Of a stretch of DNA of 64,000 bases, positions 1 to 16,299 are shown in pieces; position 1 is the stretch's first letter, and each line of letters opens with the position of its first letter. A model generated the notes under the pieces. That model worked only from the letters and a program-made list of their open reading frames with translations. It was not told where the DNA came from and ran no database searches. The DNA comes from Elusimicrobiota bacterium (GTDB taxonomy: Bacteria > Elusimicrobiota > Elusimicrobia > UBA1565 > UBA9628). Made by a program: the position numbers and the translations under genes. The stretch is taken from assembly GCA_023249675.1 (NCBI GenBank), contig JAHFCE010000003.1, positions 111,785-175,784 on the forward strand, read 5' to 3'.

Positions 1-602
1 TCATCGATGTGGACAGTTTCGCGCTTGAGAACGTCAACGAGAAGACCCGCGACGCGAAAGAGAGTCCGGGCGCCACTCTGTACCTCAATATTGGCCATCT
101 CGTGACGAATCTCTCGATCGTGGAGAACGGGGTTACGCGCGTCGTGCGCGACATGTTCATTGCGGGGAGCACGATGACGAAGGCGATCATGAAGGCCTTC
201 CAGTGCGATGCCGCCAAGGCTGAGGAGCTCAAGCACTCGCGCGGCGTGTTCGTCGATCCCGAGGAGAAGGAAAAGGCGCTTGCGGACGGCGACCGCGACG
301 GCCTCGGCGTCTCGCAGGCCGTCGGCCAGGTCGCGCGCGATCTTGTCGCCGAAGTCCACCGTTCCGTCGACTTCTACCTCTCGCAGGGTCCGGACCGCTC
401 GATTGGCCGCATCATACTTGCCGGCGGCACCGCGCGCCTCAAGAATCTCGACAAGCATCTTGCGCAGGAGTTGAAGGTGCCCGTCTCGGTGCTGAATCCG
501 TTTTCTTTTGTGAAGGGCGGCGTCAACGTGCCGGAGGCGCTGTCTGCCTCGTTCGGAGTGGCGGCGGGACTCGCTTTGAGACAGAACAGGGATTGGGAAT
601 AG
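1..602 (+). CDS. pilM: Type IV pilus assembly protein PilM (actin-like ATPase fold), C-terminal ~197 aa; 5' end lies outside the window
   Basis: ORF 9..602 has no upstream stop in frame. The C-terminus ('ILAGGTARLKNLDKHLAQELKVPVSVLNPF') is typical of PilM. It is followed directly by pilN/O/P/Q. Confidence 0.85.
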   Translation, partial: IDVDSFALENVNEKTRDAKESPGATLYLNIGHLVTNLSIVENGVTRVVRDMFIAGSTMTKAIMKAFQCDAAKAEELKHSRGVFVDPEEKEKALADGDRDGLGVSQAVGQVARDLVAEVHRSVDFYLSQGPDRSIGRIILAGGTARLKNLDKHLAQELKVPVSVLNPFSFVKGGVNVPEALSASFGVAAGLALRQNRDWE

Positions 603-608
603 AGAGCG

Positions 609-1151
609 ATGATTAAGGTCAACCTCGTTCCGGCGGGAATCCTCGCCAAGGCCAAGCAGCGGCAGCTGTTGCTGCAGGCCGCGGTGCTCGGCGGCCTTAT
701 GGCTCTTGTTCTAGCGGTCGTTTCCTGCGGCCATTGGTACGGAAAGCATGCGCTTGAAATCACTCTGGCCGCCGATGAAATCGAACTCAAGCGCCTGGAC
801 CGTGTGGTCAAGCAGGTCGAGGAGCTCGAGAAGGCGGCCGCCGCCGTGCGCGCGCGTCTGAGCGTCATCGAGGACCTGCTCCTTGGACGCGCCTACTACC
901 CCGTTTTTATGTCGGAGTTCGCCCGCTCGGTTCCGGCCGGCGTCCGGGTGAACTCGATGACGACCTCAACCGTGTCGTCCGGCGCCATCAAGCTCGTGAT
1001 CTCCGCCGCTGCGAACTCGAATGAGGACATTGCGGCCTGGGTGAAGACCCTGGAGAAAAACGCCAAGTTCAGCTTGATTGAGCTTGGGGCCGTTAACGCC
1101 GCGGTGGCTTTCTATAACTTTTCGATGACGGCGACCTACACAAGTAAATAA
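609..1151 (+). CDS. pilN: Type IV pilus inner-membrane assembly protein PilN (single TM plus coiled coil)
   Basis: 180 aa with an N-terminal 'VNLVP', one TM helix and a coiled-coil periplasmic part. It sits between pilM and pilO, 6 bp after the pilM stop. Confidence 0.75.
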   Translation: MIKVNLVPAGILAKAKQRQLLLQAAVLGGLMALVLAVVSCGHWYGKHALEITLAADEIELKRLDRVVKQVEELEKAAAAVRARLSVIEDLLLGRAYYPVFMSEFARSVPAGVRVNSMTTSTVSSGAIKLVISAAANSNEDIAAWVKTLEKNAKFSLIELGAVNAAVAFYNFSMTATYTSK

Positions 1152-1152
1152 A

Positions 1153-1698
1153 ATGGCCATGCAACTGTCGAAGCAGCAGCAGCAATACCTCGGCGCCGGC
1201 GCCGTGCTGTTCGTCGTCCTCGGCGCTGTCTATGTGAAGTTCTTTTGGCTGCCCATCGCGCAGGCCAAGGCCGAGGCCACCGAGAAGATCGCTCAGATCG
1301 AGGCCAAGATCGTGAAGGCCAAGCAGCAGGCGGCCCGCCTCGAGCGCCTGCAGGCTGAAATCGCGAGCCTGAATGAGCGTGCAGCCGAGGCCGAGAAGCG
1401 GCTGCCGAAGACGAAGTCCGTGCCCGACATCCTGCTTGCGATCTCTGGGCTCGCGCAGAAGAATCGCGTGGTGATTCAGAGTTTCGCGCCGGGACCGCAG
1501 AAGAGCCAGACATACTTTATCGAGCTGGCTTATCCTCTTGCGGTGCGTGGTTCCTATCACAATATTGGCCGCTTTCTGGCTGCCCTCTCGCTCGAGGAGC
1601 GGATATTCAATGTGAGGGACATCAATTATCCATCGGCCGACGCTTTTGGGGACATGACTGTGACCCTGACCTTGCTCTCGTATCAGTACAAAGGATGA
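1153..1698 (+). CDS. pilO: Type IV pilus assembly protein PilO
   Basis: 181 aa with an N-terminal TM, a coiled coil and a C-terminal ferredoxin-like region. It starts 1 bp after the pilN stop and overlaps pilP by 4 bp. Confidence 0.75.
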   Translation: MAMQLSKQQQQYLGAGAVLFVVLGAVYVKFFWLPIAQAKAEATEKIAQIEAKIVKAKQQAARLERLQAEIASLNERAAEAEKRLPKTKSVPDILLAISGLAQKNRVVIQSFAPGPQKSQTYFIELAYPLAVRGSYHNIGRFLAALSLEERIFNVRDINYPSADAFGDMTVTLTLLSYQYKG

Positions 1699-2177
1699 TA
1701 ACCTTCGCCCTCGTTTTACTTTTCGCGATGGCCGGTCCCACGCAAGCGGGACCGGCGCCGTCACCGGCCGCGTCAACGGGCGCCATTTTGCCGATTGGAG
1801 CTTCGACGCAGACCGTGTCGAGCCTCTACACCGGCGACCGCGTGCGCGATCCCTTTCTGCCCTCCGCGATGGGCGTCACCGGCCCGCGCCGAGTCGAGGA
1901 TGCGAAGACAGCCGGCTCTATGGTCTTGGACATTCACAGCATGCTTCTGCGCGGTATCATGAAGGACCCAAAAATCGACTACGCGCTGTTCACCTCCGAG
2001 GATGGCGGCACCTACCTTTTGCGCGGCGGCAAGCTCTACAACGAACGCAATAAGCCGGTCACGGGCATCACGGGCGTCATCAAACTCAAGCAAAAGACCG
2101 TGGAGCTCATCACGTCCGATAAGGACGTTCAGGTATTTCGTCTCGGCGAAGATGAGAAAGAAAAAGAGAAGCCCTAG
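1695..2177 (+). CDS. pilP: Type IV pilus assembly protein PilP-like (signal peptide, periplasmic)
   Basis: 160 aa with a signal peptide and a beta-rich C-terminal domain ending in a Lys/Glu-rich tail. Its position between pilO and pilQ matches the canonical pilMNOPQ order. Confidence 0.6.
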   Translation: MITFALVLLFAMAGPTQAGPAPSPAASTGAILPIGASTQTVSSLYTGDRVRDPFLPSAMGVTGPRRVEDAKTAGSMVLDIHSMLLRGIMKDPKIDYALFTSEDGGTYLLRGGKLYNERNKPVTGITGVIKLKQKTVELITSDKDVQVFRLGEDEKEKEKP

Positions 2178-2190
2178 CCGCGGAGAATTT

Positions 2191-4260
2191 ATGATCAATC
2201 ACCAATTGAAGAAAATCCTGTCCGCGGCGCTCGCCGTCGTCCTCTCCGTCCCTGCGGGCGTCGTTGAGGCCTTCGCCGCCGCGCCGGCCCCCGCTGTCTT
2301 CCAGGGCGTTGAAGTTTCCGACGATTTCGTCACGATCAAGCTCAGCGCCAACGCCCCATACAACAGCTTCTTGACCCAGACGCCTCCGCGTCTCGTGCTA
2401 GAGCTTCTCGACACCAAGCACGATGGGCCGACCCAGTCCGCTCCGGGCAAGGGAACGTTCCTTGCCGGCGTGCGTTCGGGCCAGTTCGAGAAGTCGCCGC
2501 GCCTGATCACCCGTGTTGTGATGGATCTTGTGAAGATGGCGGGCTATAAGGTCGGCGCGATCTCGGGGGGGCTGACCGTTCAGCTGATCGGCTCGGTTGA
2601 TGGCGGATCCAAGAACACGGTTTTGGCGCCGGCCCCCATCCCTGTGCCGGCTCTTCCGGCCATTAGGCCCGTTATCGCCAAGCGCGCGGCTGCGGCTAAA
2701 GCCCCCGCTCCCATCGTCGAGGTTCCCGTGGCCGCTGCGCCCGCTTACATGGCGCCGGCCCCGGAACCGGAAGTGCCGAAGGCGAGACAGCGTGTCAATG
2801 TGACGGCCGCGCAGGCGATGCGGCGCGCCGGTCTCGATGGGAGCATGACCCTGGAACTCGCAGCCGCGGCTCAAAGTTCAGATATCACGAGGAGTAAGGT
2901 TGATCCTGTCGGCGAGGTCGAGGATGGGGACAAGGTCGGGCACGCGGCCGGCGGGCGCATTTTCCGCGACATCATGAGCCGTCTGCCTCGCGACATCGTG
3001 ACGCTCGATTTCGACAATACCGACATCCGCGATGTGATTCATCTGCTCGCGGCGAAGGCCAAGGTTAATATCGTGTTCGGCCCGGACGTCACCGGCTCGC
3101 TGACGTTGCATCTTACCGATGTTCCATTTAATGAGGCCTTCCGCACAGCTCTGTCCATGATGAAACTGACGACCGATCAAGTCGGCGACAATATCCTGCG
3201 CGTGATCACCCCGGCCGAACTCACCAAGCAGCGCACCACCTCGACGGCCATCACCAAGGTCTATGTCCTCAACTACGCGAAGGCAACCGAAGTCAAGACA
3301 ACGATCGATTCTGTTCGGATGGCGGAAGGCCGCAATGGCAGCTCGACCGCCGACACGAAGACGAACACCTTGATCGTGACCGACTCCCTCGAGGGCCAGC
3401 TGTCCACGGAGAACCTGATCGCGCAGATGGACCAGCGGCCGCGCCAGGTGCTCATCGAGACCAAGATCATCGAGATCAACGCGAACTCCGGCCTCAACTA
3501 CGGTGTGCAGTGGGACTATCAAAGCGCCCAGCGGGGAACAATCGGTGGCCAGAAGGGAGTCTCGCTGATCGGCACGACCTCCAATCCAGCGGCGGCCTCC
3601 AGCCCCGTCCTCAATCCCCTTGACCAGAACGCGAACACCGCCGTTGGCGCCGGCGCATCCGGCCGCGGCACGGGCGTGGCGCTCGCCGCCGACCGCGTCT
3701 TCGGCGCGCTGACCCTGGGCCGCATCACGAACAACTTCATTCTGAACGCGACCTTGACTGCGGCGGCGTCCGAGGGCAAGGCGAAGATTCTCTCCGAGCC
3801 CAAAATCGCCACGCTCAACAACCAGGCGGCGAACATCAATGTCACGACGCAGATTCCCTATGTGACCTCGAACGTGGCCTCCACCGGCGTGCAGACCCAG
3901 TCGGTTGCCTATGTAACTACTGGCATTCAGTTGACGGTCACGCCGAGCATCAACGCCGACGGCCGCATCACCCTTCAGGTCAACCCGAACGTGAGCCAGC
4001 CTTCCGCGACCGCGGCCGGCAGCACGCAGACCGGCGCTCCCGCCGTTGATTCGCGCAACGCCACTACGACCGTGCTCGTGCGCGACGGCGAGACGATTGT
4101 GATCGGCGGCCTGATTACCGACACGATGCAGGACACGATTTCCAAGGTTCCCCTGCTCGGCGACATTCCGATCCTGGGTTGGCTGTTCAAGAAGAAGACC
4201 AAGACTCGCGTACGCGCGGAGCTCCTGATCTTCGTGACGACGAGAATATTGCCGGACTAA
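2191..4260 (+). CDS. pilQ: Type IV pilus secretin PilQ (AMIN domain, Pro/Ala linker, N0/N1 and secretin domains)
   Basis: The ORF 2002..4260 most likely starts at ATG 2191, which has a GGAGAA Shine-Dalgarno 5 nt upstream and lies just after the pilP stop. The C-terminal secretin motif reads 'VLVRDGETIVIGGLI...VPLLGDIPILGWLFKKK'. The N-terminus looks like an AMIN domain. Confidence 0.9.
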   Translation: MINHQLKKILSAALAVVLSVPAGVVEAFAAAPAPAVFQGVEVSDDFVTIKLSANAPYNSFLTQTPPRLVLELLDTKHDGPTQSAPGKGTFLAGVRSGQFEKSPRLITRVVMDLVKMAGYKVGAISGGLTVQLIGSVDGGSKNTVLAPAPIPVPALPAIRPVIAKRAAAAKAPAPIVEVPVAAAPAYMAPAPEPEVPKARQRVNVTAAQAMRRAGLDGSMTLELAAAAQSSDITRSKVDPVGEVEDGDKVGHAAGGRIFRDIMSRLPRDIVTLDFDNTDIRDVIHLLAAKAKVNIVFGPDVTGSLTLHLTDVPFNEAFRTALSMMKLTTDQVGDNILRVITPAELTKQRTTSTAITKVYVLNYAKATEVKTTIDSVRMAEGRNGSSTADTKTNTLIVTDSLEGQLSTENLIAQMDQRPRQVLIETKIIEINANSGLNYGVQWDYQSAQRGTIGGQKGVSLIGTTSNPAAASSPVLNPLDQNANTAVGAGASGRGTGVALAADRVFGALTLGRITNNFILNATLTAAASEGKAKILSEPKIATLNNQAANINVTTQIPYVTSNVASTGVQTQSVAYVTTGIQLTVTPSINADGRITLQVNPNVSQPSATAAGSTQTGAPAVDSRNATTTVLVRDGETIVIGGLITDTMQDTISKVPLLGDIPILGWLFKKKTKTRVRAELLIFVTTRILPD

Positions 4261-4263
4261 GCG

Positions 4264-5625
4264 GTGCTTGCCGGACTCGTCGGGACTGTTGTCGCCTCGG
4301 GCCTCCTGCTTCGAGGCGCGTGGGATCTCTGGGCGCAGTCGTTGGTTCTTCTTGGGCTCCTGGCTGCCTCCGCGGCCTGGTTGTGCGCCCGCCTCGTGTC
4401 GGGCTGGTTGCCTCGCCCTGAGGATAGAACGTTCGGTTGGATCCTCGCGCTCGTATCCCTGTCCGCGCTGTCGGCGTTCCTGAGCCCAGTTCCGGCCTAC
4501 TCGCGCCCGGCCTGGGCGGCGTCGGCGGCGGGCCTCTCCCTGTTCCCACTTATCTCCGTTCTCGATTCCGAGGGTCGAGAGCGTGTCGAGCGTTTCCTGC
4601 GCGGGGCGGGCTGGGCATTGCTCCTGCTCGCCGTCTATCAGAGACTTCATAGCGAGAGCCGCCCCCCCGCGACATTCATTAATCAGAACGCGTTTGCCGG
4701 AGCGATCCTGCTGCTGCTGCCCATCGCGTCGCGCGCGGGTCATTGGGCGCTCGCTGGCGGCCTGCTCCTGTGTCTGTGGTGGACGCGGTCCGTCGGGGCT
4801 TGGCTCGGGCTTGCGGCCGCTTTGCTCCTGCATCGGCGCGCGGCCGGCGCGGCAGCGTTTTGGCCAGCCGCCGCCGCGGGTTTCGTCGGCCTTGTTGCCG
4901 CCTACGCCAAGTTCCAGCCGCCGGAAACTTTGCATCGCGTCGAGTGGTGGAAGGCGGCTTGGCGCATGGCGGCCGAGGCGCCCTGGCTCGGCCTCGGTCC
5001 CGGCTCGTACGCGTACGCCCTGCCGGCGTACGCTGCCGGACGCCCAGAGCTGTCGTCCGTGTTCGCGCATCAATACTTTCTCGAGACCGCCGCCGAGCGC
5101 GGCTGGCCGTACGTCCTGCTGTGGATCCTGGGGCTCGCCGTGCTGCTCAAGCCGGCACCCGCCGCGCGGCGCTTCGGACCCGTCGCGGCCCTGATCCACG
5201 GACTCGTGGATTATCCGCTCTCCGTGCCCGGCGTGTTCTGGCTTTTCTGCGCGTCGACAGCGCTCGCGGCGCCGGAGTCGGGGCGTTCTGTCAACGTCCC
5301 GCTGCGCTGGCGTCCGGTTCTGTGCGCGAGCGTTCTCATCGCGGCTTCTGCGTCCGGAATTTTCGTATGGCGAGGCTGGTCGGCCGACCGTCTGCGTGCC
5401 CAGGGGATCGAGTCGATCCGTGCGGGACGTCTGGATGAGGCGGCCAGCACGCTGTCCGCTTCCGAGGTTTTGTCGCCTCATCCGGAGGCCGCGCGCCTGC
5501 GGGCGGAGATCATCCTGGCGCGCGGCGGCTCGGCGGTCGAGGCTGCGGGGCACCTCGCGCGTGCGATCGCACTCGATCCCTATCGCGCCTCGAACCAGAA
5601 GATGCTCAGGGCTTTGCAGAGATGA
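4264..5625 (+). CDS. Polytopic membrane protein with an O-antigen ligase/Wzy_C-like domain and a C-terminal TPR-like segment; candidate O-oligosaccharyltransferase or ligase
   Basis: GTG start 3 bp after the pilQ stop. About 10 TM helices. It has a Wzy_C-like core ('WWTRSVGAWLGLAAALLL', 'HQYFLETAAERGW') and a C-terminal helical TPR-like tail. Confidence 0.6.
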   Translation: MLAGLVGTVVASGLLLRGAWDLWAQSLVLLGLLAASAAWLCARLVSGWLPRPEDRTFGWILALVSLSALSAFLSPVPAYSRPAWAASAAGLSLFPLISVLDSEGRERVERFLRGAGWALLLLAVYQRLHSESRPPATFINQNAFAGAILLLLPIASRAGHWALAGGLLLCLWWTRSVGAWLGLAAALLLHRRAAGAAAFWPAAAAGFVGLVAAYAKFQPPETLHRVEWWKAAWRMAAEAPWLGLGPGSYAYALPAYAAGRPELSSVFAHQYFLETAAERGWPYVLLWILGLAVLLKPAPAARRFGPVAALIHGLVDYPLSVPGVFWLFCASTALAAPESGRSVNVPLRWRPVLCASVLIAASASGIFVWRGWSADRLRAQGIESIRAGRLDEAASTLSASEVLSPHPEAARLRAEIILARGGSAVEAAGHLARAIALDPYRASNQKMLRALQR

Positions 5626-7581
5626 ATGAACGCTGAACGCCTTCGTATCGGTCCGGAGACCCTTGTCGCCACGGCGCTCGCGGCAGCCGTCTTGGCGCTT
5701 CTCGGCGTCGCGTGGGCGCGCGGGCTGTCGGTGTTCTGGAGCGATCTCACTTATCTGCATCACGGCTGGCGCGCCGCGCCCGCCATGCTCGTCGTGGCCG
5801 GGCGCGCGCCTCTCTGGGAGCCGGCGCTTTACTTCGGCATGCCGATGGCGGGCACGATGCAAGGCGGGCTTTTTTATCCGGTGACTCTTTTCTACTACCT
5901 GTTCGGCTTCGCGACCGCGACCGCGTTGTTTCAGGCCTTGCATCTTTTCATCGCCGGGTGGCTGTGCGCGCTGTGGCTTCGTTCCTGCCGTTTGTCCTGG
6001 GGAGCGAGCTTTGGCGGGGCCTTTCTGTTCGCTTTTGGGGGCGTAATGATCGCGCGCCTTCCCTTCCTCAATCATCTCTCGACGTTGGCCTGGGCTCCCG
6101 CGCTCGCGCTGTTCTTTAGGCGTCCCGCGCCGTTGGGCCTCGCGTTGGCGTTGATGGTTCTTGCCGGCTACCCGACCTTCATCCCGGGGTGCGCGGCTGC
6201 CGCGTGGGTCGCGGCCTATGCGGCCCGCTCCAAGCGTTGGTCTTGGAGCGTCGCCGCCATCGACTGGGTCCTGGCGGCTGTGCTCGCCGGCGCGCTCAGC
6301 GCGGCGCAGCTTCTTCCGGGTTTGGAGCTTGCGACCCATTCCCGGCGTTCCTCCGGTGTCGGCCTTGCCGAGGCGTTGACGTGGGGCTTTACGCCTGCCG
6401 ATCTGCTCCAATGGATTGGGCCGCTGGCGGTCGGACTGTCGCATTTCCGTCCGTCCATCGATTGGACGATGTGCGTTTACCTTGGACTCGTGGGCGCGGC
6501 GGCGGCGGCTTACGGCGCCTGCGTTCTGCCGCGGCGCCGGGCTCTTGTTCTCGGCGCGGCCATTGTGGGCGTCGCATTCCTGACGCTCGGAGCCTCTCAC
6601 CCGCTGTCCGGCGCGTTGTGGCGCGTCCTGCCGCCCCTGCGCTTCGTCCGTTACCCGGGCAACCTGGCTTATATCGCTCTGCTCCCGTTGGCCGCGCTCG
6701 CCGCGGCGGGCTTCTCGGACCGTCGGGCGGGGCCGGTGCTCGTGATTCTGTCGGCGTTTGAGCTATTGGCGCTCGGCCGTTGCGCGACGCCGCTCGCTCC
6801 CCGCGCCCTATTCGCCGAACCTGGCCTGCTCGTGCGGACCCTGCAGAAAAGCCAGGGGGACGCGCGTTATCTGATTTCGCCGAGGGCCTTGCAGGCGTCG
6901 AAGGGCTCAGACATCTTCGACTGGAAGCAGCGCCTTTACGGCCTGACGAATGCGCCCTATCGCTTGCGTGCGGCCGCCAATTTTGGCGAGCCTTTGGTGC
7001 CGTCATCCTCCTATGCGGTGATGGACGCGTTGTTGAGTCTGCCGAGCGCCGACGCGGCTGCGGGCTGGATGCCGTGGATTGGGGCCGCGCGCCTGCTGAC
7101 CCCAGAACCGGCGACCTCGCCGCTGCTCACAGCCGAGACACGTTCTCTTTGGGATATCTCGAAATTGCGCGCAAGTCCGGTCTCGCTCGCCTATCAATTG
7201 ACGCCGCAGGATGGCGCGGCCCTGTCGGTGGCGTGGCCGGCGATTCCGCCGGACGCCGCCCGTTCGGCGCTCGAGGTGCGCCGTCCGCGCGAGGACCGTT
7301 TTGAAGTGTCCGGCGCAGGCGCGGGCTGGGCGTACGTCGCGGAGCCGCGCTTTCCGGGCTGGACGACCGTGCTCTCTGTTCCCTCGGGAGAGCGGCGCGT
7401 GACGCCCGAGCCGGCGCTGGGCGCCTTCCAGAAAGTTGAGACCCCGGCCGGTCCTTGGACCTTGCGCTGGCGCTATGAGCCGCAGCCGTGGCGGTTCGGG
7501 CTGCTTGCGACGTGGGCGGCGTGGATAGTCCTGGCGGCCTATTGGTATCATCGAACTCTCGCCTTAGGAGGGATTCAATGA
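5626..7581 (+). CDS. YfhO-family GT-C fold membrane glycosyltransferase (paralog 1)
   Basis: 651 aa polytopic protein. The N-terminal loop motif 'PLWEPALYFGMPMAGTMQGGLFYP' resembles the YfhO signature. Its ATG abuts the preceding TGA. A large C-terminal periplasmic domain follows. Confidence 0.6.
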   Translation: MNAERLRIGPETLVATALAAAVLALLGVAWARGLSVFWSDLTYLHHGWRAAPAMLVVAGRAPLWEPALYFGMPMAGTMQGGLFYPVTLFYYLFGFATATALFQALHLFIAGWLCALWLRSCRLSWGASFGGAFLFAFGGVMIARLPFLNHLSTLAWAPALALFFRRPAPLGLALALMVLAGYPTFIPGCAAAAWVAAYAARSKRWSWSVAAIDWVLAAVLAGALSAAQLLPGLELATHSRRSSGVGLAEALTWGFTPADLLQWIGPLAVGLSHFRPSIDWTMCVYLGLVGAAAAAYGACVLPRRRALVLGAAIVGVAFLTLGASHPLSGALWRVLPPLRFVRYPGNLAYIALLPLAALAAAGFSDRRAGPVLVILSAFELLALGRCATPLAPRALFAEPGLLVRTLQKSQGDARYLISPRALQASKGSDIFDWKQRLYGLTNAPYRLRAAANFGEPLVPSSSYAVMDALLSLPSADAAAGWMPWIGAARLLTPEPATSPLLTAETRSLWDISKLRASPVSLAYQLTPQDGAALSVAWPAIPPDAARSALEVRRPREDRFEVSGAGAGWAYVAEPRFPGWTTVLSVPSGERRVTPEPALGAFQKVETPAGPWTLRWRYEPQPWRFGLLATWAAWIVLAAYWYHRTLALGGIQ

Positions 7582-9419
7582 CCCGCCGTGACCTTCTCGT
7601 CGTTGGAGCCCTCGCGGCCGCCGTCCTCGCGCTGACAGCGCCCGTCTGGGCGCGACCGGGCCAAGCCTTCTTCAACCACGGCGACCTCTACGCCTATCAT
7701 TGGCCGCTGCGCCATCACACGGCGGCTGCAATCATTGAAGGCCATCTTCCTTTTTGGAATCCGTACGTCATGCTTGGTGTTCCGCACGCGGCCAACCCGC
7801 AGGCCGCATTATTTTATCCCGCCTCCGTTCTGGGTTTCCTCCTGCCCGCCATGACGGCCTTGGTTTGGGATCAGATCCTTCATCTCTTGTGGGCGGCGCT
7901 CGGCGCGTTCGTACTCGCGCGTTCGGGCCGCTTGCCGCGCGCGGCCGCCGCGGCGCTCGCGACGGCCTACGCGCTCTCGCCTTTTTTGGTCTACCGCGTG
8001 ACGGCGGGCATCCCGACCTTGGTCGCCGCGCTGTCTTGGGTGCCGTGGGCTTGGCTCGCGTGGCTCGGCGGTTCGGCGCCCCTGCTGGCGGCCGTCTTCG
8101 CTCTCCAGTTCTTCTCCGGCCACCCGCAGTTTCTTCTCGTCAACGCCGTTGGCATGGGTGTATGGGCGCTTTCGAAGGGTTCTTCGCGCGCGGTATTTCT
8201 GCTGTTCACGGGCGCGTGTGGCGCGTTGTTGCTTGCCGCGGTGCAGTGGCTGCCGACGCTTGAGCTGCTGCGCGGCTCCAGCCGTTCCGGCTGGCCGGCG
8301 CAATTCACGGCCGCCTATTCCATTCGTCCCGCGGACCTGCTGATGTGGCTGTCTCCCGGAGCGCTTGGCACGCCGTTCAACGGCGTCTGGGGCGGAGAGG
8401 TGTCCGTATTCTACGAAAGCGGCGGGGTCTGGCTTGGCTGCGCGGTGCTCGCGCTTGCGGTTGGAGGCCTCCGACTCGGGCGTGCGCGGCTCGGGCCGCT
8501 CTTGCTTATTGTGCTCGGCATTATTCTGGCGCTTGGGGCCAACGGCCCGCTTGGCCCGCTTCTGCACGCGCCCGGCTTCTCTTATCTGCGCACTCCCTCG
8601 CGCTGGTCCTTCCTTTCCTTGTGGGGTCTCTGGCTGCTTGCGGGCGCGGGCGCGCGGGCGGTGTTCTCATTGCCCAAGGTTGCGGGGGCGCTGTTCATCC
8701 TCCCGCTCATCGTGTTGGCGGAGCTCGGTTTTTGGGATTTAAGATTCCTTAAATCCATGAACGCGCGGGCGTTCACCCAGGGGAGCCCCGCCGTCGTCGC
8801 GCGCCTGGCCGGCCGCCCATCGCGTGTCCTCACCGATCCCGCGCTCGCCAATCCCAATAAGGCGATGGTCTACCGGATGCGCAACGTCAATGGTTATGAC
8901 GCGTTCTATCCCGCGAGCGCCGCTCGATGGGCCGCGCAAGCCGAGGGCGCTCCGGCCGCGGATCCGAGCTGGGTGCTGGCGTCGCGCTGGAAGTCGGATG
9001 CGGCTGTGCGCGCGGGCGTGTCCGCCCGCCTGGCGCCCTTCGGAATCGAGGAACGGGACGGCGCTTGGCCGCTGGCATCGTTTCTCAACGCGACAGGTGG
9101 CCGCGTGACCCCGGATCCGATTCTTCGCATTGACCGTCCCGAGCGTTGGCGAGTAACGGGATCAATCCCGAAGGGCGCGGTCGCGGTCGCGCTCGCCGAA
9201 ACGCGCTGGCCCGGCTGGCGCGCGGCCCTAGATGGGCGCGAGGCTCCGCTCGCGGCGTGGGGCCCTGCGTTCCAGTTCGTCTCCCTCACGCCGAATACGA
9301 CCGACGTTGATCTCCGCTTTGATTTTTCGCCGACCCGTTGGTTCTTATGGGCGGCTCTGTCGGTCGTCGCCTGGGTCTCTTGGTTTGTCGCCTTCCTGTG
9401 TCGCGCGGAGCCCGTATGA
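7578..9419 (+). CDS. YfhO-family GT-C fold membrane glycosyltransferase (paralog 2)
   Basis: The motif 'LPFWNPYVMLGVPHAANPQAALFYP' is the classical YfhO WNPY..G.P motif. The ATG at 7578 overlaps the upstream stop as ATGA. Polytopic N-terminus with a periplasmic C-terminal domain. Confidence 0.7.
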   Translation: MTRRDLLVVGALAAAVLALTAPVWARPGQAFFNHGDLYAYHWPLRHHTAAAIIEGHLPFWNPYVMLGVPHAANPQAALFYPASVLGFLLPAMTALVWDQILHLLWAALGAFVLARSGRLPRAAAAALATAYALSPFLVYRVTAGIPTLVAALSWVPWAWLAWLGGSAPLLAAVFALQFFSGHPQFLLVNAVGMGVWALSKGSSRAVFLLFTGACGALLLAAVQWLPTLELLRGSSRSGWPAQFTAAYSIRPADLLMWLSPGALGTPFNGVWGGEVSVFYESGGVWLGCAVLALAVGGLRLGRARLGPLLLIVLGIILALGANGPLGPLLHAPGFSYLRTPSRWSFLSLWGLWLLAGAGARAVFSLPKVAGALFILPLIVLAELGFWDLRFLKSMNARAFTQGSPAVVARLAGRPSRVLTDPALANPNKAMVYRMRNVNGYDAFYPASAARWAAQAEGAPAADPSWVLASRWKSDAAVRAGVSARLAPFGIEERDGAWPLASFLNATGGRVTPDPILRIDRPERWRVTGSIPKGAVAVALAETRWPGWRAALDGREAPLAAWGPAFQFVSLTPNTTDVDLRFDFSPTRWFLWAALSVVAWVSWFVAFLCRAEPV

Positions 9420-10408
9420 CCCGCAGGAAGGTCTTGTCGGGAGTTGTCGCCTTCGCGATCACGGGAATCTTCCTGTGGCTGGCTCTGCGCAAGGTTGAGT
9501 TCGCAGCGCTCGGCGCGGCCCTGTCGTCGGCGCGCCTGGTCTGGCTGATCCCGATGGTTGCCATCGTCTATTTTGACCTGCTCGTGCGTGCCGTGCGCTG
9601 GCGCGTCCTGCTCTCTCTCGCGCGCGTTCAGCCCGCGCCGGTGTGGGACCTCCTCAAGCTCGAGGCGATCGGTCTTGCGGTCAACAACGTCCTGCTGCTG
9701 CGCCTTGGCGAGCTTGCGCGCGCGGGCCTTGCGGCCCGCCGCCTGGGCATTCCGGCGGCCGCAGCGCTCGCGAGCGTGGCCGTCGAGCGCGCGCTCGACG
9801 TGGCCGCCCTTCTGACCATCTTCGTGCTCGCCTGCCGGTTGGCGCCCGGCATTGCGCCGGTCGCGGTCGTGCGCGCAGCGTTGCTGCTGCTCGCGGGCGC
9901 GATCGGAGCTTTGATCATCCTGGCCGCGGCGGAAAGCTCGTTGGCGCCAGGCGGTTTTGCCGAGAGCCGTCTACGCCGCTGGCCCCGAGTGCATAACTTC
10001 ATCGAGCAACTGGCGCTCGGCGCCGCGGTGCTTCGCTCTCCCGCCGCTGCCGCACAGGCCGCGTGCCTGAGCCTACTGCTGTGGACCGTGGATGCGGCTG
10101 TGTATTGGGCGGGGGCGTACGCGTTCGGCCTCGGCGGTCTGATGGACTATCCGCGGGCGGTCCTGACCTTGTCGTGGGCGGGGGCGATCTCCGCGATCCC
10201 GGCCGCGCCCGGCTCGATCGGCACGTTTGAGGCCTGCATCGTGTCGATCCTTCACACCTTCGGCGCAGCGCCCGAAACCGCTTTGGCGTACGCTTTGTTT
10301 ACGCACATGACCATGTATCTTCTGGTGACGGTGACGGGGCTCGTGTTCTTGTCGCGCGAGGGCGTGTCGCTAGCACGCCTGCGCGAGGACGTCGAGCGCG
10401 ACGCATGA
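9416..10408 (+). CDS. Lysylphosphatidylglycerol-synthase-TM-like (UPF0104, 'flippase-like') integral membrane protein
   Basis: ATG at 9416 in an ATGA overlap. About 8 TM helices. The start 'RKVEFAALGAALSSARLVWLIPMVAIVYFDLLVRAVRWRVLL' is typical of this family, which is usually partnered with GT2 polyprenyl-phosphate glycosyltransferases. Confidence 0.6.
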   Translation: MTRRKVLSGVVAFAITGIFLWLALRKVEFAALGAALSSARLVWLIPMVAIVYFDLLVRAVRWRVLLSLARVQPAPVWDLLKLEAIGLAVNNVLLLRLGELARAGLAARRLGIPAAAALASVAVERALDVAALLTIFVLACRLAPGIAPVAVVRAALLLLAGAIGALIILAAAESSLAPGGFAESRLRRWPRVHNFIEQLALGAAVLRSPAAAAQAACLSLLLWTVDAAVYWAGAYAFGLGGLMDYPRAVLTLSWAGAISAIPAAPGSIGTFEACIVSILHTFGAAPETALAYALFTHMTMYLLVTVTGLVFLSREGVSLARLREDVERDA

Positions 10409-11430
10409 AGCGCAGTCTGCTCGTCATCCTGGCGTGCCCCGTCTGCGGCGGCGACCTCACCTGCGCCCTGCTCGAAGTTGACCCGCGCCATGATGCGGAA
10501 ATCGAAGAAACGATGCTTGCCTGCAAGTTGTGCGCCCGGGAGTATCCGGTGGTCGGCGGCGTGCCGCGCCTGCGCCCTCCGAATCCCGTCCTGCGCGCGA
10601 CTGCCAAGACGCGCGAAGCGTTCGGTTGGGAGTGGCTGCGCTATCCTGGCTCGCTGTCCGGCGACAAGGATATTTTTCTTGAGGAGACGATGCTGCCGCC
10701 GCGCGAGCTCGCGGGCAAGCTCGTTCTTGACGCGGGCTGCGGCATGGGCCGCTACAGCGCCGTCGCTCTTTCTTTGGGGGCCGAGGTCGTGGCGGTCGAC
10801 ATGTCCGAGAGCCTCGAGCGCGTCGCCGCGCTCGCCCGAGATCAGCCGAAGCTTCACCCGGTCGAGGCCGATCTGCTTCATCCACCGTTCAAGAAGCGCG
10901 TCTTCGACGTCGCCTACAGCCAAGGCGTTCTGCACCACACCGCCGATACGCGTGCCGCTTTTGCGGCGGTGGCAGCGCTCGTCAAGCCGCGAGGCCTGTT
11001 CTCCGTGTGGTTGTACGGCAAGGCCGGGCGCTACTGCGATTTTGCATCAAACCCGCTCAAGCCCGGACGCGGCTGGATCGCCCGCCATCGGAGGGCCGCG
11101 TGGGTCCTCGTGCTCCTGCGTCACGCTGTCAGCGACCTCGTGCGCGCGTTCACGACGCGAATACCCATCCCCGTTGTTTACGCGCTGTGCCATCCGCTGA
11201 CCTGGCTCGGCGTCGTGCCCGGCCTGAGGTGGTTTACCTACTCTGTAGATCCGCGCTATCAGGTCCGTCTCATCGAGAACTTTGATTGGATTTCGCCGCC
11301 CTACCAGTGGCATCACACGAAAGAGGAACTGCTGCGGTGGTGCGCCGCAGAGGGCTTCTCAGTCGTCCGTGTCCTGCCGCACGGTTTGGTGCCCAAGCCC
11401 GGCGTTCTTGGCCGAAAGAATTCCCCATGA
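10405..11430 (+). CDS. Trm112-like zinc-ribbon fused to a class I SAM-dependent methyltransferase
   Basis: The N-terminal 'CPVCGG...CKLCAREYPVVGGVP' is a Trm112-like fold. 'LVLDAGCGMGRYS' is the methyltransferase motif I. ATGA overlap with the previous gene. Confidence 0.7.
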   Translation: MKRSLLVILACPVCGGDLTCALLEVDPRHDAEIEETMLACKLCAREYPVVGGVPRLRPPNPVLRATAKTREAFGWEWLRYPGSLSGDKDIFLEETMLPPRELAGKLVLDAGCGMGRYSAVALSLGAEVVAVDMSESLERVAALARDQPKLHPVEADLLHPPFKKRVFDVAYSQGVLHHTADTRAAFAAVAALVKPRGLFSVWLYGKAGRYCDFASNPLKPGRGWIARHRRAAWVLVLLRHAVSDLVRAFTTRIPIPVVYALCHPLTWLGVVPGLRWFTYSVDPRYQVRLIENFDWISPPYQWHHTKEELLRWCAAEGFSVVRVLPHGLVPKPGVLGRKNSP

Positions 11431-12557
11431 CCAAGCCGAGGACGCGGGTCGTCATGGTGAGTGCTGGTTTTTGGCCTGCCGTGGGAGGCGCGGAGCGCCA
11501 AGCGCTCGAGCTTTCGCGTGAACTGCGTGGGCGCGGCGCGGACGTGCTCGTGCTCACGCGCCGCGTCGGCTGCGCGCCATCCCGTGAGGAGGTGCATGGC
11601 GTGCCGGTGCGGCGCTTGCGCGTGTTCGGGACCGACGCCTTCGACTCCCTCTCTTTTCTCTTCGGCGCGCTTGGCTGGCTGCTCAAGCATGGCGGCGACT
11701 ATGACGCGATCCATGCTCACCTTGCCGGTTCGCCTGCGCTCGCGGCCGCCTTGGCCGGACGCTGGCTCGGCAAACCCGTGTTGATCAAGCTCGGCGGGGG
11801 GCGCGGCATTGGCGAGCTTGCCGTCTCCTCGCGCACTTATCTTGGCCGGCTCAAACTCCGCCTGCTGGCCCGGCTTCAGCCGCGCTTTCTCGCCGTAGTT
11901 CCTGATCTCGCCGCCGAGGCGCGCGAGCATCTTGGCGATGTGCTGATCGAGGTGTTGGCGAACGGAGTGGACGTGAACCGTTATAAGCCCGTTTCCCCAG
12001 AGGAGAGACAGGCCATGCGCGCGCGCCTGGGCTGGACGGGAACGGTCTTCCTTTATACGGGGAGGCTCTCGTGGGAAAAGCGCCTGCCTTGGTTCGCAAA
12101 AATATGGAATCAAGCGACGCAGGATCGCGAAGCGATCCTGGTTCTCGTTGGTGAGGGACCGGAGCGAGCCCTCATCGAGGCGTCGTTTCCGGCGGGCTCC
12201 TGCCGTATCCGCATTCTGCCGGCCGTGGACGATATTTCCGAGTTCTATGCCGCTGCCGACGCCTTCGTCCTGCCCTCCGTGTCCGAAGGACTTTCTAATT
12301 CATTGCTCGAGGCGATGGCCTCGGGACTTGCGGTGATCGCGAGTGCGGTCGGCGGAAGTGCTACGACGATCGAGGACGGCGTCACGGGGCTTTTGTTTGC
12401 GCGCGATGACGAGGCGGCTGCGGCGGCCTGCGTGCGCCGTGTGCTTGACCGGCCGGATCTGGCTGCGAAGCTGGGGGCCCATGCGAGGCGAGCCTGCGAG
12501 GAGCGGTACTCGCTGTCGCGCGTCGCGGCACGCCTTGAGGAGTTGTACACTGTCTGA
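11427..12557 (+). CDS. GT4-family (GT-B fold) glycosyltransferase
   Basis: Start at 'MTKPRTRVVMVSAGFWPAVGGAERQALEL', in an ATGA overlap. The C-terminal half carries an 'E..E'-type GT4 motif ('SEGLSNSLLEAMASGLAVIAS'). Confidence 0.8.
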   Translation: MTKPRTRVVMVSAGFWPAVGGAERQALELSRELRGRGADVLVLTRRVGCAPSREEVHGVPVRRLRVFGTDAFDSLSFLFGALGWLLKHGGDYDAIHAHLAGSPALAAALAGRWLGKPVLIKLGGGRGIGELAVSSRTYLGRLKLRLLARLQPRFLAVVPDLAAEAREHLGDVLIEVLANGVDVNRYKPVSPEERQAMRARLGWTGTVFLYTGRLSWEKRLPWFAKIWNQATQDREAILVLVGEGPERALIEASFPAGSCRIRILPAVDDISEFYAAADAFVLPSVSEGLSNSLLEAMASGLAVIASAVGGSATTIEDGVTGLLFARDDEAAAAACVRRVLDRPDLAAKLGAHARRACEERYSLSRVAARLEELYTV

Positions 12558-12563
12558 TCGAAC

Positions 12564-14486: not shown

Positions 14487-15084
14487 GGGCGGACATAATC
14501 AGCTGGACGCCGATGGCGGCCAACAGCAAACCCATCAGGCGCGTGATGATGTTGAGTAGGGTGGAGGAGAGCTTCTTTGCGCTCGCCGCCGCGACGGTCA
14601 GCACCCAGTAGCTGAGCAAGGCCACCAAGGCGATGAGCGCGTAGAAGAGCATTTTTTGGGGAGCTCCCGACGCGCGGCCGCTGAGCACCATCGAGGTCGT
14701 GATTGCGCCGGGCCCGGCCAAGAGGGGGACCGCCAAAGGCGTAATCGCGATGTCGTCCTTGCTCATCCCTTCGGCGAACTCCTCAGGCGTCTCTCGCATC
14801 GGCGACTTCTGGGCGCGGATCATGTCGAGCGCGGACAGCAGAAGCACAAGGCCGCCGGCGATCTGGAAGGCGGGCAAAGTGATTCCGAACAGGCGGAAGA
14901 TCGCGGGTCCGAGCAGGGCGAAGGCCGACATGACGCCAGCACAGGTGATGCAGGCCGTGCGGGCCATGCGCCGCCGTTGCTCGGCGGTGTCGCGGGCCGT
15001 CATCGCGAGGAAGGTTGGGACCGCCGCGAAGGGGTCCACGATCGCGAAGAGGGATCCGAAGGTTAGAAACGCGTACTCGATCAC
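14473..15084 (-). CDS. MarC-family (UPF0056) integral membrane protein
   Basis: 203 aa with ~6 TM helices; 'LFAIVDPFAAVPTFLAMT' is the MarC signature. Its stop overlaps the asnB stop convergently by 14 bp. Confidence 0.7.
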   Translation of the reverse strand: MIEYAFLTFGSLFAIVDPFAAVPTFLAMTARDTAEQRRRMARTACITCAGVMSAFALLGPAIFRLFGITLPAFQIAGGLVLLLSALDMIRAQKSPMRETPEEFAEGMSKDDIAITPLAVPLLAGPGAITTSMVLSGRASGAPQKMLFYALIALVALLSYWVLTVAAASAKKLSSTLLNIITRLMGLLLAAIGVQLIMSALKLG

Positions 15085-15101
15085 TGGCCCATTTTACTAC
15101 A

Positions 15102-16298: not shown

Positions 16299-16299
16299 C

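Follow-up and report, generated by a model that had tools for sequence, protein, structure and literature searches.

A WaaL-fold Wzy_C-TPR protein encoded directly after pilQ in Elusimicrobiota-type bacteria: a candidate pilus-linked protein O-oligosaccharyltransferase

The pilMNOPQ genes at the left end of the window (the whole 64,000-nucleotide stretch of DNA that was analyzed) are followed directly by ORF-A. Its product is the window's member of a separate subfamily of WaaL-fold proteins, deeply conserved, that we term W1. The arrangement of pilMNOPQ with W1 directly behind it is conserved across very divergent Elusimicrobia-type genomes, and this is a new result; a literature search found no paper that links pilMNOPQ to an O-antigen ligase gene. 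Our best reading is that ORF-A is a candidate pilus-dedicated protein O-oligosaccharyltransferase (OTase) of a previously undescribed kind, to which we assign a probability of about 0.45. The features of the window that bear on this reading are the following.

9-602, plus strand: 3' part of pilM, a gene cut by the window start (Pfam PilM_2, E 2.1e-21)
609-1151, plus strand: pilN (Pfam PilN)
1153-1698, plus strand: pilO (Pfam PilO, E 6e-24)
1695-2177, plus strand: pilP-like gene (operon position; faint PilP match, E 0.087)
2191-4260, plus strand: pilQ secretin gene (TIGR02515 PilQ, 299.9 bits against a cut-off of 284; Pfam Secretin, Secretin_N and AMIN)
4264-5625, plus strand: ORF-A (W1), WaaL-fold candidate lipid-linked-glycan transferase, 453 aa
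4906-5103, plus strand: ORF-A catalytic loop, predicted periplasmic, aa 215-280 (alignments A1 and A3)
5311-5622, plus strand: ORF-A TM helix 13 (aa 350-369) and TPR tail (aa 372-453) (DSSP of the AF2 model, TPR matches)
5626-7581, plus strand: U1, putative divergent YfhO-like GT-C glycosyltransferase (YfhO matches of orthologues, Foldseek)
7578-9419, plus strand: U2, paralogue of U1, putative GT-C (hhalign to the U1 profile)
9416-10408, plus strand: stand-alone MprF-type flippase-like membrane protein, LPG_synthase_TM (PF03706, E 3.3e-38; TIGR00374)
10405-11430, plus strand: Trm112-fused SAM methyltransferase (Pfam Methyltransf_11, Trm112p)
11286-12557 (longest ORF), plus strand: GT4 glycosyltransferase (Pfam Glyco_trans_1_4, Glyco_transf_4)
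12564-14486, plus strand: AsnB-type amidotransferase (Asn_synthase, E 2.5e-98; TIGR03108, 632 bits, below the cut-off of 817)
15015-20552, plus strand: variable island part, whose content differs between related genomes (Pfam, NCBIfam)
20527-23136, plus strand: ORF-B, second Wzy_C-TPR gene, 869 aa (Wzy_C 57.6 bits, TPR_2 55.8 bits)
23120-24142, minus strand: GT2 glycosyltransferase, the last gene of the island (Pfam Glycos_transf_2, E 1.2e-33)

The stop codon of pilQ (TAA, 4258-4260) and the GTG start of ORF-A at 4264 are separated by 3 nt, as the original prediction had described, and the start is backed by 33 homologues that open with M/V-LAGLVG at the same position. A Wzy_C core had been proposed for both ORF-A and ORF-B, and both matches lie above the Pfam gathering cut-off of 31.7 bits (ORF-A, residues 146-288, 48 bits, E 1.5e-12; ORF-B, 57.6 bits, E 1.7e-15). 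Residues N142, R225, G243xG245, and H269 of ORF-A are invariant in 53 family members whose mean identity is only ~22%. The local pattern around R225 and H269 resembles that around R288 and H338 of Escherichia coli WaaL, with a Pro at Arg+15 and an H-N-x-x-[LI]-E motif. R288 and H338 are essential in E. coli WaaL and are conserved in PglL as R298 and H349 (PMC3643930), and retention of this Arg/His signature, common to WaaL and PglL, is one reason for the OTase reading. The counterpart of WaaL R215 is probably R175, a position that varies among R, K, and H. The PglL-specific signature that the original prediction had in mind is missing: neither PglL_A (PF15864; Schulz et al. 2013) nor a second Wzy-type domain was found in ORF-A at a Pfam E value of ≤10. 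Among NCBIfam models the sole match of ORF-A is a weak one to IctB (22.5 bits against a cut-off of 366), and ORF-B matches the same model at 82.7 bits, well under the cut-off; we take these matches to reflect a shared superfamily and not function. The absence of PglL_A and of any curated NCBIfam family beyond the weak IctB match counts against the OTase reading.

A fold search with the AF2 model placed WaaL of Cupriavidus metallidurans (PDB 7TPG/7TPJ) as the solved structure closest to ORF-A, which has a WaaL-like polytopic fold with 13 predicted TM helices; WaaL and ORF-A have the Pfam Wzy_C domain in common. Fold searches were needed to recognize this relation, since searches of PDB sequences with ORF-A and with profiles A1 and A3 returned TPR proteins only, via the tail, and did not retrieve WaaL (7TPG). 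Helix 13 (aa 350-369) passes unbroken into the TPR tail of ~2.5 repeats. In the DSSP assignment of the model, residues 48-50 pair with residues 342-344 in a beta-bridge that places the loop between TM12 and TM13 in the cytoplasm. Among the short loops, those predicted as cytoplasmic contain 15 K/R and those predicted as periplasmic contain 3. These two observations predict a periplasmic TPR tail. TPR tails had been proposed for both Wzy_C proteins. That of ORF-B is unambiguous (TPR_2, 55.8 bits), whereas the ORF-A tail on sequence alone reaches 17 bits with TPR_16, below the Pfam cut-off of 32.7, and is recognized through a profile of distant family members that matches TPR proteins through the tail with E values down to 1e-117.

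The linkage to pilus genes extends well beyond the window. The gene immediately 5' of W1 is pilQ in each of the 32 close loci with sequence available on that side, in the distant loci L040, L042, and L043 (~26-28% identity), and in 24/24 confident metagenome loci, which were collected with a 10-sequence alignment as the query and a confidence threshold of E≤2e-15. Loci with the pilQ-W1 order span 30-64% GC, so the adjacency noted in the original prediction is not peculiar to this genome, and its persistence across close, distant, and metagenome loci is a second reason for the OTase reading. An HMM built from the distant pilQ-linked proteins alone gives ORF-A 144 bits; the distant W1 proteins are 470-600 aa long, versus 453 aa for ORF-A. 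The organisms from which W1 sequences come are, where named, all Elusimicrobia/Elusimicrobiota and otherwise unclassified, and the synteny could therefore partly reflect inheritance within one phylum.

Downstream of W1 the glycan genes change between loci while W1 stays directly after pilQ. A second Wzy_C-TPR gene (W2) usually comes after W1, and GT4, Trm112-fused methyltransferase, and flippase-type genes recur in several W1 clusters; the Trm112-methyltransferase fusion is present also in the distant clusters L042 and L070, the latter of which reads pilC, pilin, pilD, pilMNOPQ, W1, W2, GT4, flippase, and Trm112-methyltransferase. These two distant clusters contain one or two glycosyltransferases only, and chain-length and outer-membrane export (PCP/OPX) genes were not seen near any W1 copy, nor was the Wzz/PCP family in the Pfam tables of the window and its relatives. 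The small number of glycosyltransferases and the lack of chain-length and export genes fit a short glycan. Whole pilus clusters of this kind, like the predicted periplasmic location of the TPR tail, also speak for the OTase reading.

In the alternative that the original prediction itself had named, the island makes a surface glycan, lipid-anchored or free, such as LPS O-antigen or another envelope polymer, and ORF-A and ORF-B serve as its ligase and/or polymerase. Their targets would be lipid A-core or Und-PP-linked repeat units, and the adjacency to pilMNOPQ would reflect only co-inheritance or co-regulation. We consider this less likely than the OTase reading but a serious rival. Several observations speak for it. 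WaaL is the closest solved structure. The island has an O-antigen-type layout, with a conserved left end, a variable, sugar-modifying middle, and a conserved right end that carries the second Wzy_C gene, and the conserved module after ORF-A (two GT-C proteins, the flippase-like protein, methyltransferase, GT4, and AsnB), which continues into the variable island, is large for a pilin glycan, an argument against the OTase reading. A Wzx/MurJ-type flippase gene occurs in the clusters of relatives, and polysaccharide loci commonly encode AsnB-type amidotransferases and DegT aminotransferases. Two W1-like genes without pilus linkage (L044 and L045) lie in glycan loci with PMT_2 GT-C enzymes, which likewise weighs against a role dedicated to pili. 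Finally, periplasmic TPR domains act also as scaffolds of polysaccharide export (cited in PMC2943079, its reference 99).

Against these points, the position after pilQ is kept at 30-64% GC, which chance or mere inheritance explains poorly. ORF-A is encoded in a pilus operon with no LPS-core genes seen nearby: heptosyltransferase and Kdo-transferase genes were absent from the window genes scanned (to ~52.8 kb) and from the gene tables of related loci. The lack of chain-length and PCP/OPX genes and the scarcity of glycosyltransferases in the distant clusters also fit a surface polymer badly. W1 and W2/ORF-B both carry the His motif of the ligase/OTase type, and neither stands out as a polymerase. 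E. coli WaaL is essentially without score on the family profiles (-17 bits on the W1 HMM, -5 on the W2 HMM, and only 9.3 bits, best domain 15.7, on a broad family HMM), and sequence profiles did not connect WaaL and ORF-A in either direction. The absence of LPS-core genes nearby and the negative scores of WaaL on the W1 and W2 HMMs are a further reason for the OTase reading. ORF-A further differs from E. coli WaaL in having G-x-G at Arg+18/+20 in place of F306/S308, and in its extra TM helix 13 and predicted periplasmic tail; we know of no characterized WaaL enzyme with a TPR tail.

In several respects ORF-A resembles known OTases. PglL, a general OTase of Neisseria, Burkholderia, Vibrio, and Acinetobacter, has the same Wzy_C core and Arg/His pair, and the spacing of its G316/G318 after R298 equals that of G243/G245 after R225, a comparison made on published residue numbers (PMC3643930). 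Residues Q178, N180, G316, G318, H400, E404, and P406 are present in PglL and not in WaaL (PMC3643930); by published residue numbers only, N140-x-N142 and H312-x3-D316 of ORF-A resemble Q178/N180 and H400/E404. PglL is longer (550-600 aa; PMC9829042, table 2), and at 453 aa ORF-A is closer in size to TfpO and TfpM (420-470 aa; PMC9829042), which are likewise Wzy_C proteins encoded in pilus clusters and are known from Pseudomonas group I, Acinetobacter, and Moraxella. A TPR tail is present in ORF-A, and none is described for TfpO or TfpM. C-terminal TPR domains are, however, reported in the Wzy_C O-OTases WsfB and PglL (PMC2943079), and the pilin transferase TfpW has a periplasmic TPR domain (bioRxiv 10.1101/2020.04.19.049825). 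These precedents in O-OTases and in a pilin transferase are another reason for the OTase reading. By description, WsfB of Paenibacillus alvei, with Wzy_C and a C-terminal TPR, has the architecture of ORF-A, and its locus includes wsfA, an AsnB homologue like the island's amidotransferase (PMC2943079). In Geobacillus stearothermophilus, a separate small TPR protein is encoded just upstream of WsaB (PMC2943079), which recalls the gene for a membrane-anchored TPR protein of 197 aa that stands between pilQ and W1 in L043. WsfB and WsaB belong to Gram-positive S-layer systems without pilus genes, unlike W1. TfpW, from Pseudomonas aeruginosa group IV, is a polytopic, pilin-dedicated arabinosyltransferase with a large periplasmic C-terminal TPR domain; it is a GT-C (ArnT-like) enzyme, whereas ORF-A is a Wzy_C protein.

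The genes tfpO (pilO), tfpW, and tfpM directly follow pilA, whereas W1 directly follows pilQ, and we know of no description of a pilin O-OTase gene after pilQ. The original prediction had presented the position next to pilQ as one where pilin OTases are found. That generalization does not hold: 21/31 pglL homologues adjoin a pilin gene and the Neisseria pglL is unlinked (PMC3643930). The position of known pilin OTase genes beside pilin genes and not beside pilQ (PMC3643930) therefore counts against the OTase reading, as does the lack of a pilin gene in the 64-kb window, in which a strict prepilin-motif regex found none in six frames. Pilin genes are present in some W1 clusters only; in distant clusters they lie 4-8 kb upstream of W1. 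The seven pilins available from W1 clusters, among which the window's own genome is not represented, all end in [S/T]-[Y/W]-COOH with a hydroxyl residue in the penultimate position. TfpO and TfpM glycosylate a C-terminal Ser/Thr of the pilin (PMC9829042), and the shared ending is also a reason for the OTase reading, although it may be purely structural.

ORF-A might also be a protein OTase whose acceptor is a part of the machine, PilP or PilQ, and not the pilin. There is only a slim chance of this in our view. The tight coupling is to pilQ, with its 3-nt gap, and not to a pilin gene; behind its signal peptide the pilP-like product carries a linker rich in Ala, Pro, and Ser (GPAPSPAASTGA), the AMIN domain of PilQ is followed by a long linker rich in Ala and Pro, and general OTases of the PglL type modify flexible low-complexity periplasmic regions (PMC3643930). 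The PilQ linker, however, is almost devoid of Ser/Thr, and a pilin gene shares the cluster in several of the distant loci.

Under the OTase reading, we infer the following roles for donor, acceptor, and neighboring genes. On the cytoplasmic side of the membrane, the conserved GT4, Trm112-methyltransferase, and AsnB proteins together with the variable sugar-modifying genes would assemble a short glycan with undecaprenyl diphosphate as its carrier, and this would then be flipped into the periplasm, a step for which the clusters of relatives carry the Wzx/MurJ-type flippase. There ORF-A would use its Arg225/His269 loop for en bloc transfer of the glycan; the hydroxyl residue that receives it would belong to a type IV pilus protein, with the major pilin as the likeliest candidate, and the TPR tail of ORF-A could serve in acceptor recognition or in docking on the pilus assembly complex. 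U1 and U2 may add further sugars in the periplasm from polyprenyl-phosphate donors; the ArnC-like GT2 would supply these donors, and the MprF-type protein may flip them. ORF-B would be a second, similar transferase with another acceptor or role. Acinetobacter has a gene for a pilin-specific OTase and one for a general OTase side by side, and the W1-W2 tandem resembles this pair. The combination of TfpO and PglL in Acinetobacter is the precedent for such a second transferase. Two features of the locus sit poorly with the OTase reading: Pfam annotation shows no initiating phosphoglycosyltransferase in the island, and Wzx is absent from the window, though present in relatives.

The assignment of U1 and U2 draws on relatives and models. 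Window U1 has no significant Pfam match, but 8 of its 24 orthologues match YfhO (best E 3.5e-6), and its AF2 model (pLDDT 75) retrieves AftD first in Foldseek (1.4e-8), then PglB, Pmt4, and ArnT. U2 aligns to the U1 profile over 564 columns (hhalign probability 99.5%, E 1.2e-22). TfpW, which uses a polyprenyl-phosphate-linked sugar, belongs to the same general fold class as U1 and U2. A 1257-aa protein of L040 was considered as a U1+U2 fusion and rejected for want of BLAST similarity at 1e-3.

In cyanobacteria, secretion of hormogonium polysaccharide has been proposed to depend on type IV pili, and a comparable system could be imagined here: a polymer made at the inner membrane, with the TPR tails bridging to PilQ/PilP, and released at or through the pilus apparatus. 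The fusion to pilMNOPQ is conserved and the pilin gene is found in a subset of clusters, which would suit such a system, as would the predicted periplasmic location of the TPR tail, the additional TPR protein, anchored in the membrane, that L043 encodes between pilQ and W1, and the use of TPR scaffolds in synthase-dependent polysaccharide export (cited in PMC2943079). The idea is nevertheless highly improbable. Signs of polymerization are missing, with few glycosyltransferases and no chain-length regulator, and the catalytic residues follow the pattern of en bloc transferases. To our knowledge, no secretin has been shown to conduct polysaccharide. We also entertain, as a quite improbable reading, a type IV pilus machine in Elusimicrobiota-type bacteria with a built-in glycosylation module (W1, W2, GT-C, and flippase) that would dock by the TPR tail on PilP/PilQ and glycosylate pilins or machine components at the assembly site; in its radical version, glycan would be handed to the secretin for release. 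If true, this would amount to an unrecognized accessory subsystem of type IV pili, going beyond an OTase gene beside its substrate gene.

Glycosylation of pilins influences how pili work, recognition by phages and the immune system, and the chemistry of the surface, and PglL, PglS, TfpO, and TfpM are working tools of bioconjugate vaccine production. All characterized pilin-glycosylating examples that we know of are proteobacterial, with their genes beside pilin genes or unlinked. W1 differs from the characterized enzymes in forming a separate, deeply branching Wzy_C-TPR subfamily whose genes are joined to the pilMNOPQ operon in a phylum that is largely uncultivated, usually as a tandem transferase pair and often accompanied by GT-C enzymes of its own. 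Should a pilus protein prove to be the acceptor, W1 would widen the known range of O-oligosaccharyltransferases, provide a clean genomic marker for them, and suggest that glycosylation can be coupled to the assembly machine and not to the substrate gene. Should it be a lipid or polymer, the conserved fusion to a secretin operon would still need an explanation.

The statement that two Wzy_C proteins bracket the island is borne out here, with the qualification that the GT2 gene at 23120-24142 lies beyond ORF-B, and also on contig Ga0558069_0000206, where orthologues of ORF-A and ORF-B stand ~34 kb apart and enclose a different set of glycan genes. ORF-B has the same signature as ORF-A, with NPN at 191, GTGIGSF at 314, and the His within DHAENEYLEQ, and scores 134 bits on the broad family HMM. 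Its possible orthology to W2, the second tandem gene of the distant clusters, is less clear-cut (65 bits on the W1 HMM, 50 on the W2 HMM, and an ambiguous BLAST result). The genes on its right flank, GT2, GSHPx, HAD, and PTR2, form the identical set in L046, in which the GT2 gene is conserved beside ORF-B. The variable part between 15015 and 20552 encodes a DegT aminotransferase, a methyltransferase, the ArnC/AglJ-like GT2 (17693-18850), an epimerase, and a second GT2.

A consensus scan for promoters and terminators between 3800 and 23700 returned counts equal to the shuffled expectation and so says nothing on operon boundaries. Several genes of the window probably start downstream of their longest ORF. 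The start of pilQ is probably ATG 2191, which is followed by a predicted signal peptide, and the longest ORF runs from 2002. U2 likely starts at ATG 7578, overlapping the U1 stop, with the longest ORF from 7488, and the GT4 gene probably starts near 11430, downstream of the longest-ORF start at 11286. For the flippase-like gene at 9416-10408, the longest ORF begins at 9338. In this high-GC DNA, a 1240-aa ORF on the minus strand (2878-6600), opposite pilQ, ORF-A, and U1, was discarded as their antisense shadow.

The window belongs to a metagenome-assembled genome of Elusimicrobia/Elusimicrobiota, the name under which sources list homologues of the window's proteins. Its first 24 kb form a single plus-strand gene train, with only the final GT2 gene on the minus strand:

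start of train, plus: pilM (cut by the window start), pilN, pilO, a pilP-like gene and pilQ
4264-5625, plus: ORF-A, a Wzy_C-TPR gene (W1), next after pilQ
5626-7581 and 7578-9419, plus: U1 and U2, unannotated membrane proteins of ~650 aa each
after U2, plus: stand-alone MprF-type flippase-like protein
after the flippase-like gene, plus: Trm112-fused methyltransferase, GT4, AsnB-type amidotransferase
between AsnB and ORF-B, plus: DegT aminotransferase, methyltransferase, ArnC/AglJ-like GT2, epimerase, GT2
20527-23136, plus: ORF-B, the second Wzy_C-TPR gene
beyond ORF-B, minus: GT2

PilQ scores 299.9 bits against TIGR02515, exceeding the cut-off. Its stop lies at 4260 and the GTG start of ORF-A, a start residue common to 33 homologues, at 4264. 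The train looks translationally coupled, given the 4-nt overlaps between several of the downstream genes and the stop before them (e.g., U1/U2 and U2/flippase-like). The longest ORFs of two genes are too long: pilQ (from 2002) probably starts at ATG 2191, before the signal peptide and past the pilP stop at 2177, and U2 (from 7488) at ATG 7578, where ATGA overlaps the stop of U1. The largest break, ~530 nt between AsnB and the DegT aminotransferase (14487-15014), is possibly where the island's conserved part gives way to its variable part. Across 4000-11000 (ORF-A, U1, U2 and the flippase-like gene), AT skew falls to -0.41 (T over A) and GC rises to 0.67-0.68, which is consistent with successive genes for very hydrophobic membrane proteins in a high-GC genome and is not evidence of foreign DNA. 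A 1240-aa open frame on the minus strand (2878-6600), antisense to pilQ, ORF-A and U1, was rejected as a shadow ORF typical of high-GC DNA.

The main new result is a conserved link between W1 and the pilus operon. A one-genome-per-species scan returned 30 Elusimicrobia loci with an ORF-A orthologue (45-82% identity), and three loci were added from encoding-contig look-ups. The pilM-N-O-P-Q genes immediately precede the orthologue in every scan or look-up locus having upstream DNA, and U1, U2, a flippase-like gene, usually a methyltransferase, and a GT4 follow it. At E<=1e-10 a profile search of the full library matched about 290 cluster representatives, of which many are full-length proteins with the tail; in the three distant members whose loci were inspected (E 1e-26 to 1e-30, about 26-28% identity), the gene again follows pilMNOPQ, with W2 (another Wzy_C-TPR gene) and glycan genes unlike the window's coming next. 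When distant members seeded a metagenome scan, 29 loci were found: pilQ is directly upstream in all 24 with E<=2e-15, in the order pilMNOPQ-W1-W2 wherever the contig is long enough, and the 5 exceptions are weak partial matches to generic Wzy_C proteins. GC of the loci spans 30% to 64%. ORF-A is the orthologue of the first gene of the distant clusters, since it scores 144 bits on an HMM of distant pilQ-linked proteins only versus 39 bits on the W2 HMM. One locus, L070, has the whole pilus cluster contiguous with W1-W2 (pilC, pilin, pilD, pilMNOPQ, W1, W2, GT4, MurJ/Wzx-type flippase, radical-SAM enzyme, Trm112-methyltransferase). The link is not absolute: W1-like genes at two loci (L044 and L045) lie without pilus genes, in glycan loci with PMT_2 GT-C enzymes. 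That the pilQ-W1 junction is so deeply conserved is strong evidence for a functional tie of W1 to the pilus system. No description of W1 directly after pilMNOPQ appeared in the literature searched.

Two further gene groups occur around these pilus operons. Low-GC clusters carry an ABC transporter (ATPase and ABC-2 permease) and a 270-aa TPR protein between the pilin and prepilin peptidase genes (L070, 1889-4219). Upstream of pilM on the opposite strand, just beyond the point equivalent to the window's start, relatives keep a cluster (L002, 1-4904; L048, 1-4914) of HAD hydrolase, nucleotidyltransferase, unknown 280-aa protein, class-III aminotransferase, GFO/IDH/MocA oxidoreductase and CDP-alcohol phosphatidyltransferase, which looks like a pathway for an unusual CDP-activated head group.

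The original prediction described both proteins as a Wzy_C core with a TPR tail, and this observation stands. Pfam Wzy_C scores are 48 bits for ORF-A and 57.6 bits for ORF-B (cut-off 31.7). AlphaFold2, given 34 homologues, yields a confident model of ORF-A (pLDDT 88, pTM 0.89) that has 13 helices, with a beta-bridge joining the TM2-3 and TM12-13 loops; the model's sole significant membrane-protein match among solved structures (Foldseek) is WaaL (7tpg, E 2.3e-5). The model topology and the Lys/Arg count in short loops (15 on the predicted cytoplasmic side, 3 opposite) predict a periplasmic location for both the 65-residue catalytic loop and the C-terminal tail. Judged by sequence alone, the tail falls below the Pfam TPR threshold. 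Superposition of the tail on a consensus TPR gives 1.2 A, and the profile of distant relatives matches TPR proteins very strongly through it. Such tails recur in protein-glycosylating enzymes: a C-terminal TPR motif is reported for the S-layer O-OTase WsfB and for PglL, WsaB lacks one, and the gene just upstream of it codes for a 168-aa TPR protein (PMC2943079), and the C-terminal TPR domain of TfpW, a GT-C enzyme arabinosylating Pseudomonas group IV pilins, is periplasmic (bioRxiv 10.1101/2020.04.19.049825). At locus L043 pilQ and W1 are separated by a gene (9414-10007) whose 197-aa product carries TPR repeats and is membrane-anchored at its C-terminus, recalling WsaA, the separate TPR protein upstream of the S-layer OTase WsaB. 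TPR tails also occur in polysaccharide-export scaffolds, and a polysaccharide system coupled to the pilus machine would accommodate both tail and junction; we consider it improbable.

Among 53 family members, which average about 22% identity, five residues are invariant (N142, R225, G243, G245 and H269 in ORF-A). By local pattern R225 and H269 correspond to R288 and H338 of E. coli WaaL, residues reported to be essential in WaaL and conserved in PglL, which additionally conserves G316, G318, Q178/N180 and H400/E404, not found in WaaL (Schulz et al., PMC3643930). By published numbers, PglL G316 and G318 lie 18 and 20 residues past R298, the spacing of G243 and G245 past R225, where E. coli WaaL has Phe and Ser; N140-x-N142 and H312-x3-D316 recall Q178/N180 and H400/E404. 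These correspondences, with PglL known by published numbers, are leads rather than tests. Against PglL membership, the PglL-specific PglL_A Pfam motif was not found in ORF-A at E<=10, and ORF-A has 453 aa versus 550-600 aa (PMC9829042). A surface-glycan ligase or polymerase, to which the WaaL-like fold would be suited, is a serious though less likely alternative. Against WaaL membership, no LPS-core genes are seen nearby, E. coli WaaL scores on neither the W1 nor the W2 profile, and ORF-A has an extra TM helix and the TPR tail, while the ligase/OTase-type His in both paired genes and the absence of a chain-length regulator argue weakly against a polymerase. The reading we favor, at a probability of roughly 0.45, is that ORF-A is a pilus-dedicated protein O-oligosaccharyltransferase, with an acceptor that we infer. 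The earlier interpretation holds in part; its positional argument, that ORF-A sits where pilin OTases are found, erred in detail, since the pilin OTase genes known so far adjoin pilin genes.

The window contains no pilin gene. W1 clusters supplied seven, one between pilO and pilP and the rest upstream of pilM, and every encoded pilin ends in [S/T]-[Y/W]-COOH (TSY, TSY, NTW, NSW, NTW, SSW, WTW). TfpO and TfpM glycosylate pilin C-terminal Ser/Thr (PMC9829042), and by analogy these ends are suggestive, and only that, of glycosylation there. A transferase acting on PilP or PilQ rather than on pilin seems quite unlikely. The pilin gene inside the pilMNOPQ operon (L030, 6786-7250) encodes a protein that ends in ...NTWTSY, as does the pilin of L040, a very distant cluster. 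Low-complexity segments are targets of general O-glycosylation systems, and past its signal peptide the PilP-like protein (1695-2177) has an Ala/Pro/Ser/Thr-rich linker of this kind, GPAPSPAASTGAILPIGASTQTVSS.

U1 and U2, which lack annotation in Pfam and NCBIfam, are probably divergent YfhO-like GT-C glycosyltransferases. Pfam YfhO is matched by 8 of 24 U1 orthologues, not by the window's U1; the U1 model (pLDDT 75) matches GT-C enzymes (AftD at 1.4e-8, then PglB, Pmt4 and ArnT), and U2 is paralogous to U1 (hhalign probability 99.5%). In both (5626-9419), the first periplasmic loop contains an invariant Asp and a beta-rich domain is followed by a C-terminal TM helix; both are kept after ORF-A in all close relatives. 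Three-component periplasmic glycosylation systems comprise a polyprenyl-phosphate sugar synthase, a flippase and a GT-C transferase, and the ArnC-like GT2, the flippase-like protein and U1 and U2 may resemble one. The island has no initiating phosphoglycosyltransferase. Relatives encode a Wzx-type flippase of ~497 aa (Polysacc_synt) between GT4 and AsnB (L002, 18319-19809; L048, 18390-19883). It is absent from the window, where GT4 directly precedes AsnB (12557-12564), so it is lost from this position or located elsewhere.

ORF-B belongs to the same broad family as ORF-A (134 bits on the broad family HMM) and shares its NPN, G-x-G-x-G-x-F and His motifs; comparison with the W1 and W2 HMMs gave no assignment to W2. 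Its orthologues are kept in Elusimicrobia (57-100% identity), and the genes to its right (GT2, glutathione peroxidase, HAD, POT transporter) are the same in another genome. There, on one contig, about 34 kb separate the ORF-A and ORF-B orthologues, and the genes in between are a different set, with PMT_2 GT-C enzymes among them. The two genes therefore bracket a variable glycan island, as had been proposed from the window. Past the first 24 kb, genes were examined to about 52.8 kb; these have housekeeping functions or lack annotation. Among them, neither of two adjacent minus-strand ORFs, 41227-42816 and 42813-43559, matches Pfam, and 39225-41255 and 50620-52824 encode two cyclic-nucleotide-binding fusion proteins, the types being a cNMP-binding domain with a patatin-like phospholipase and a SulP-STAS-cNMP transporter.
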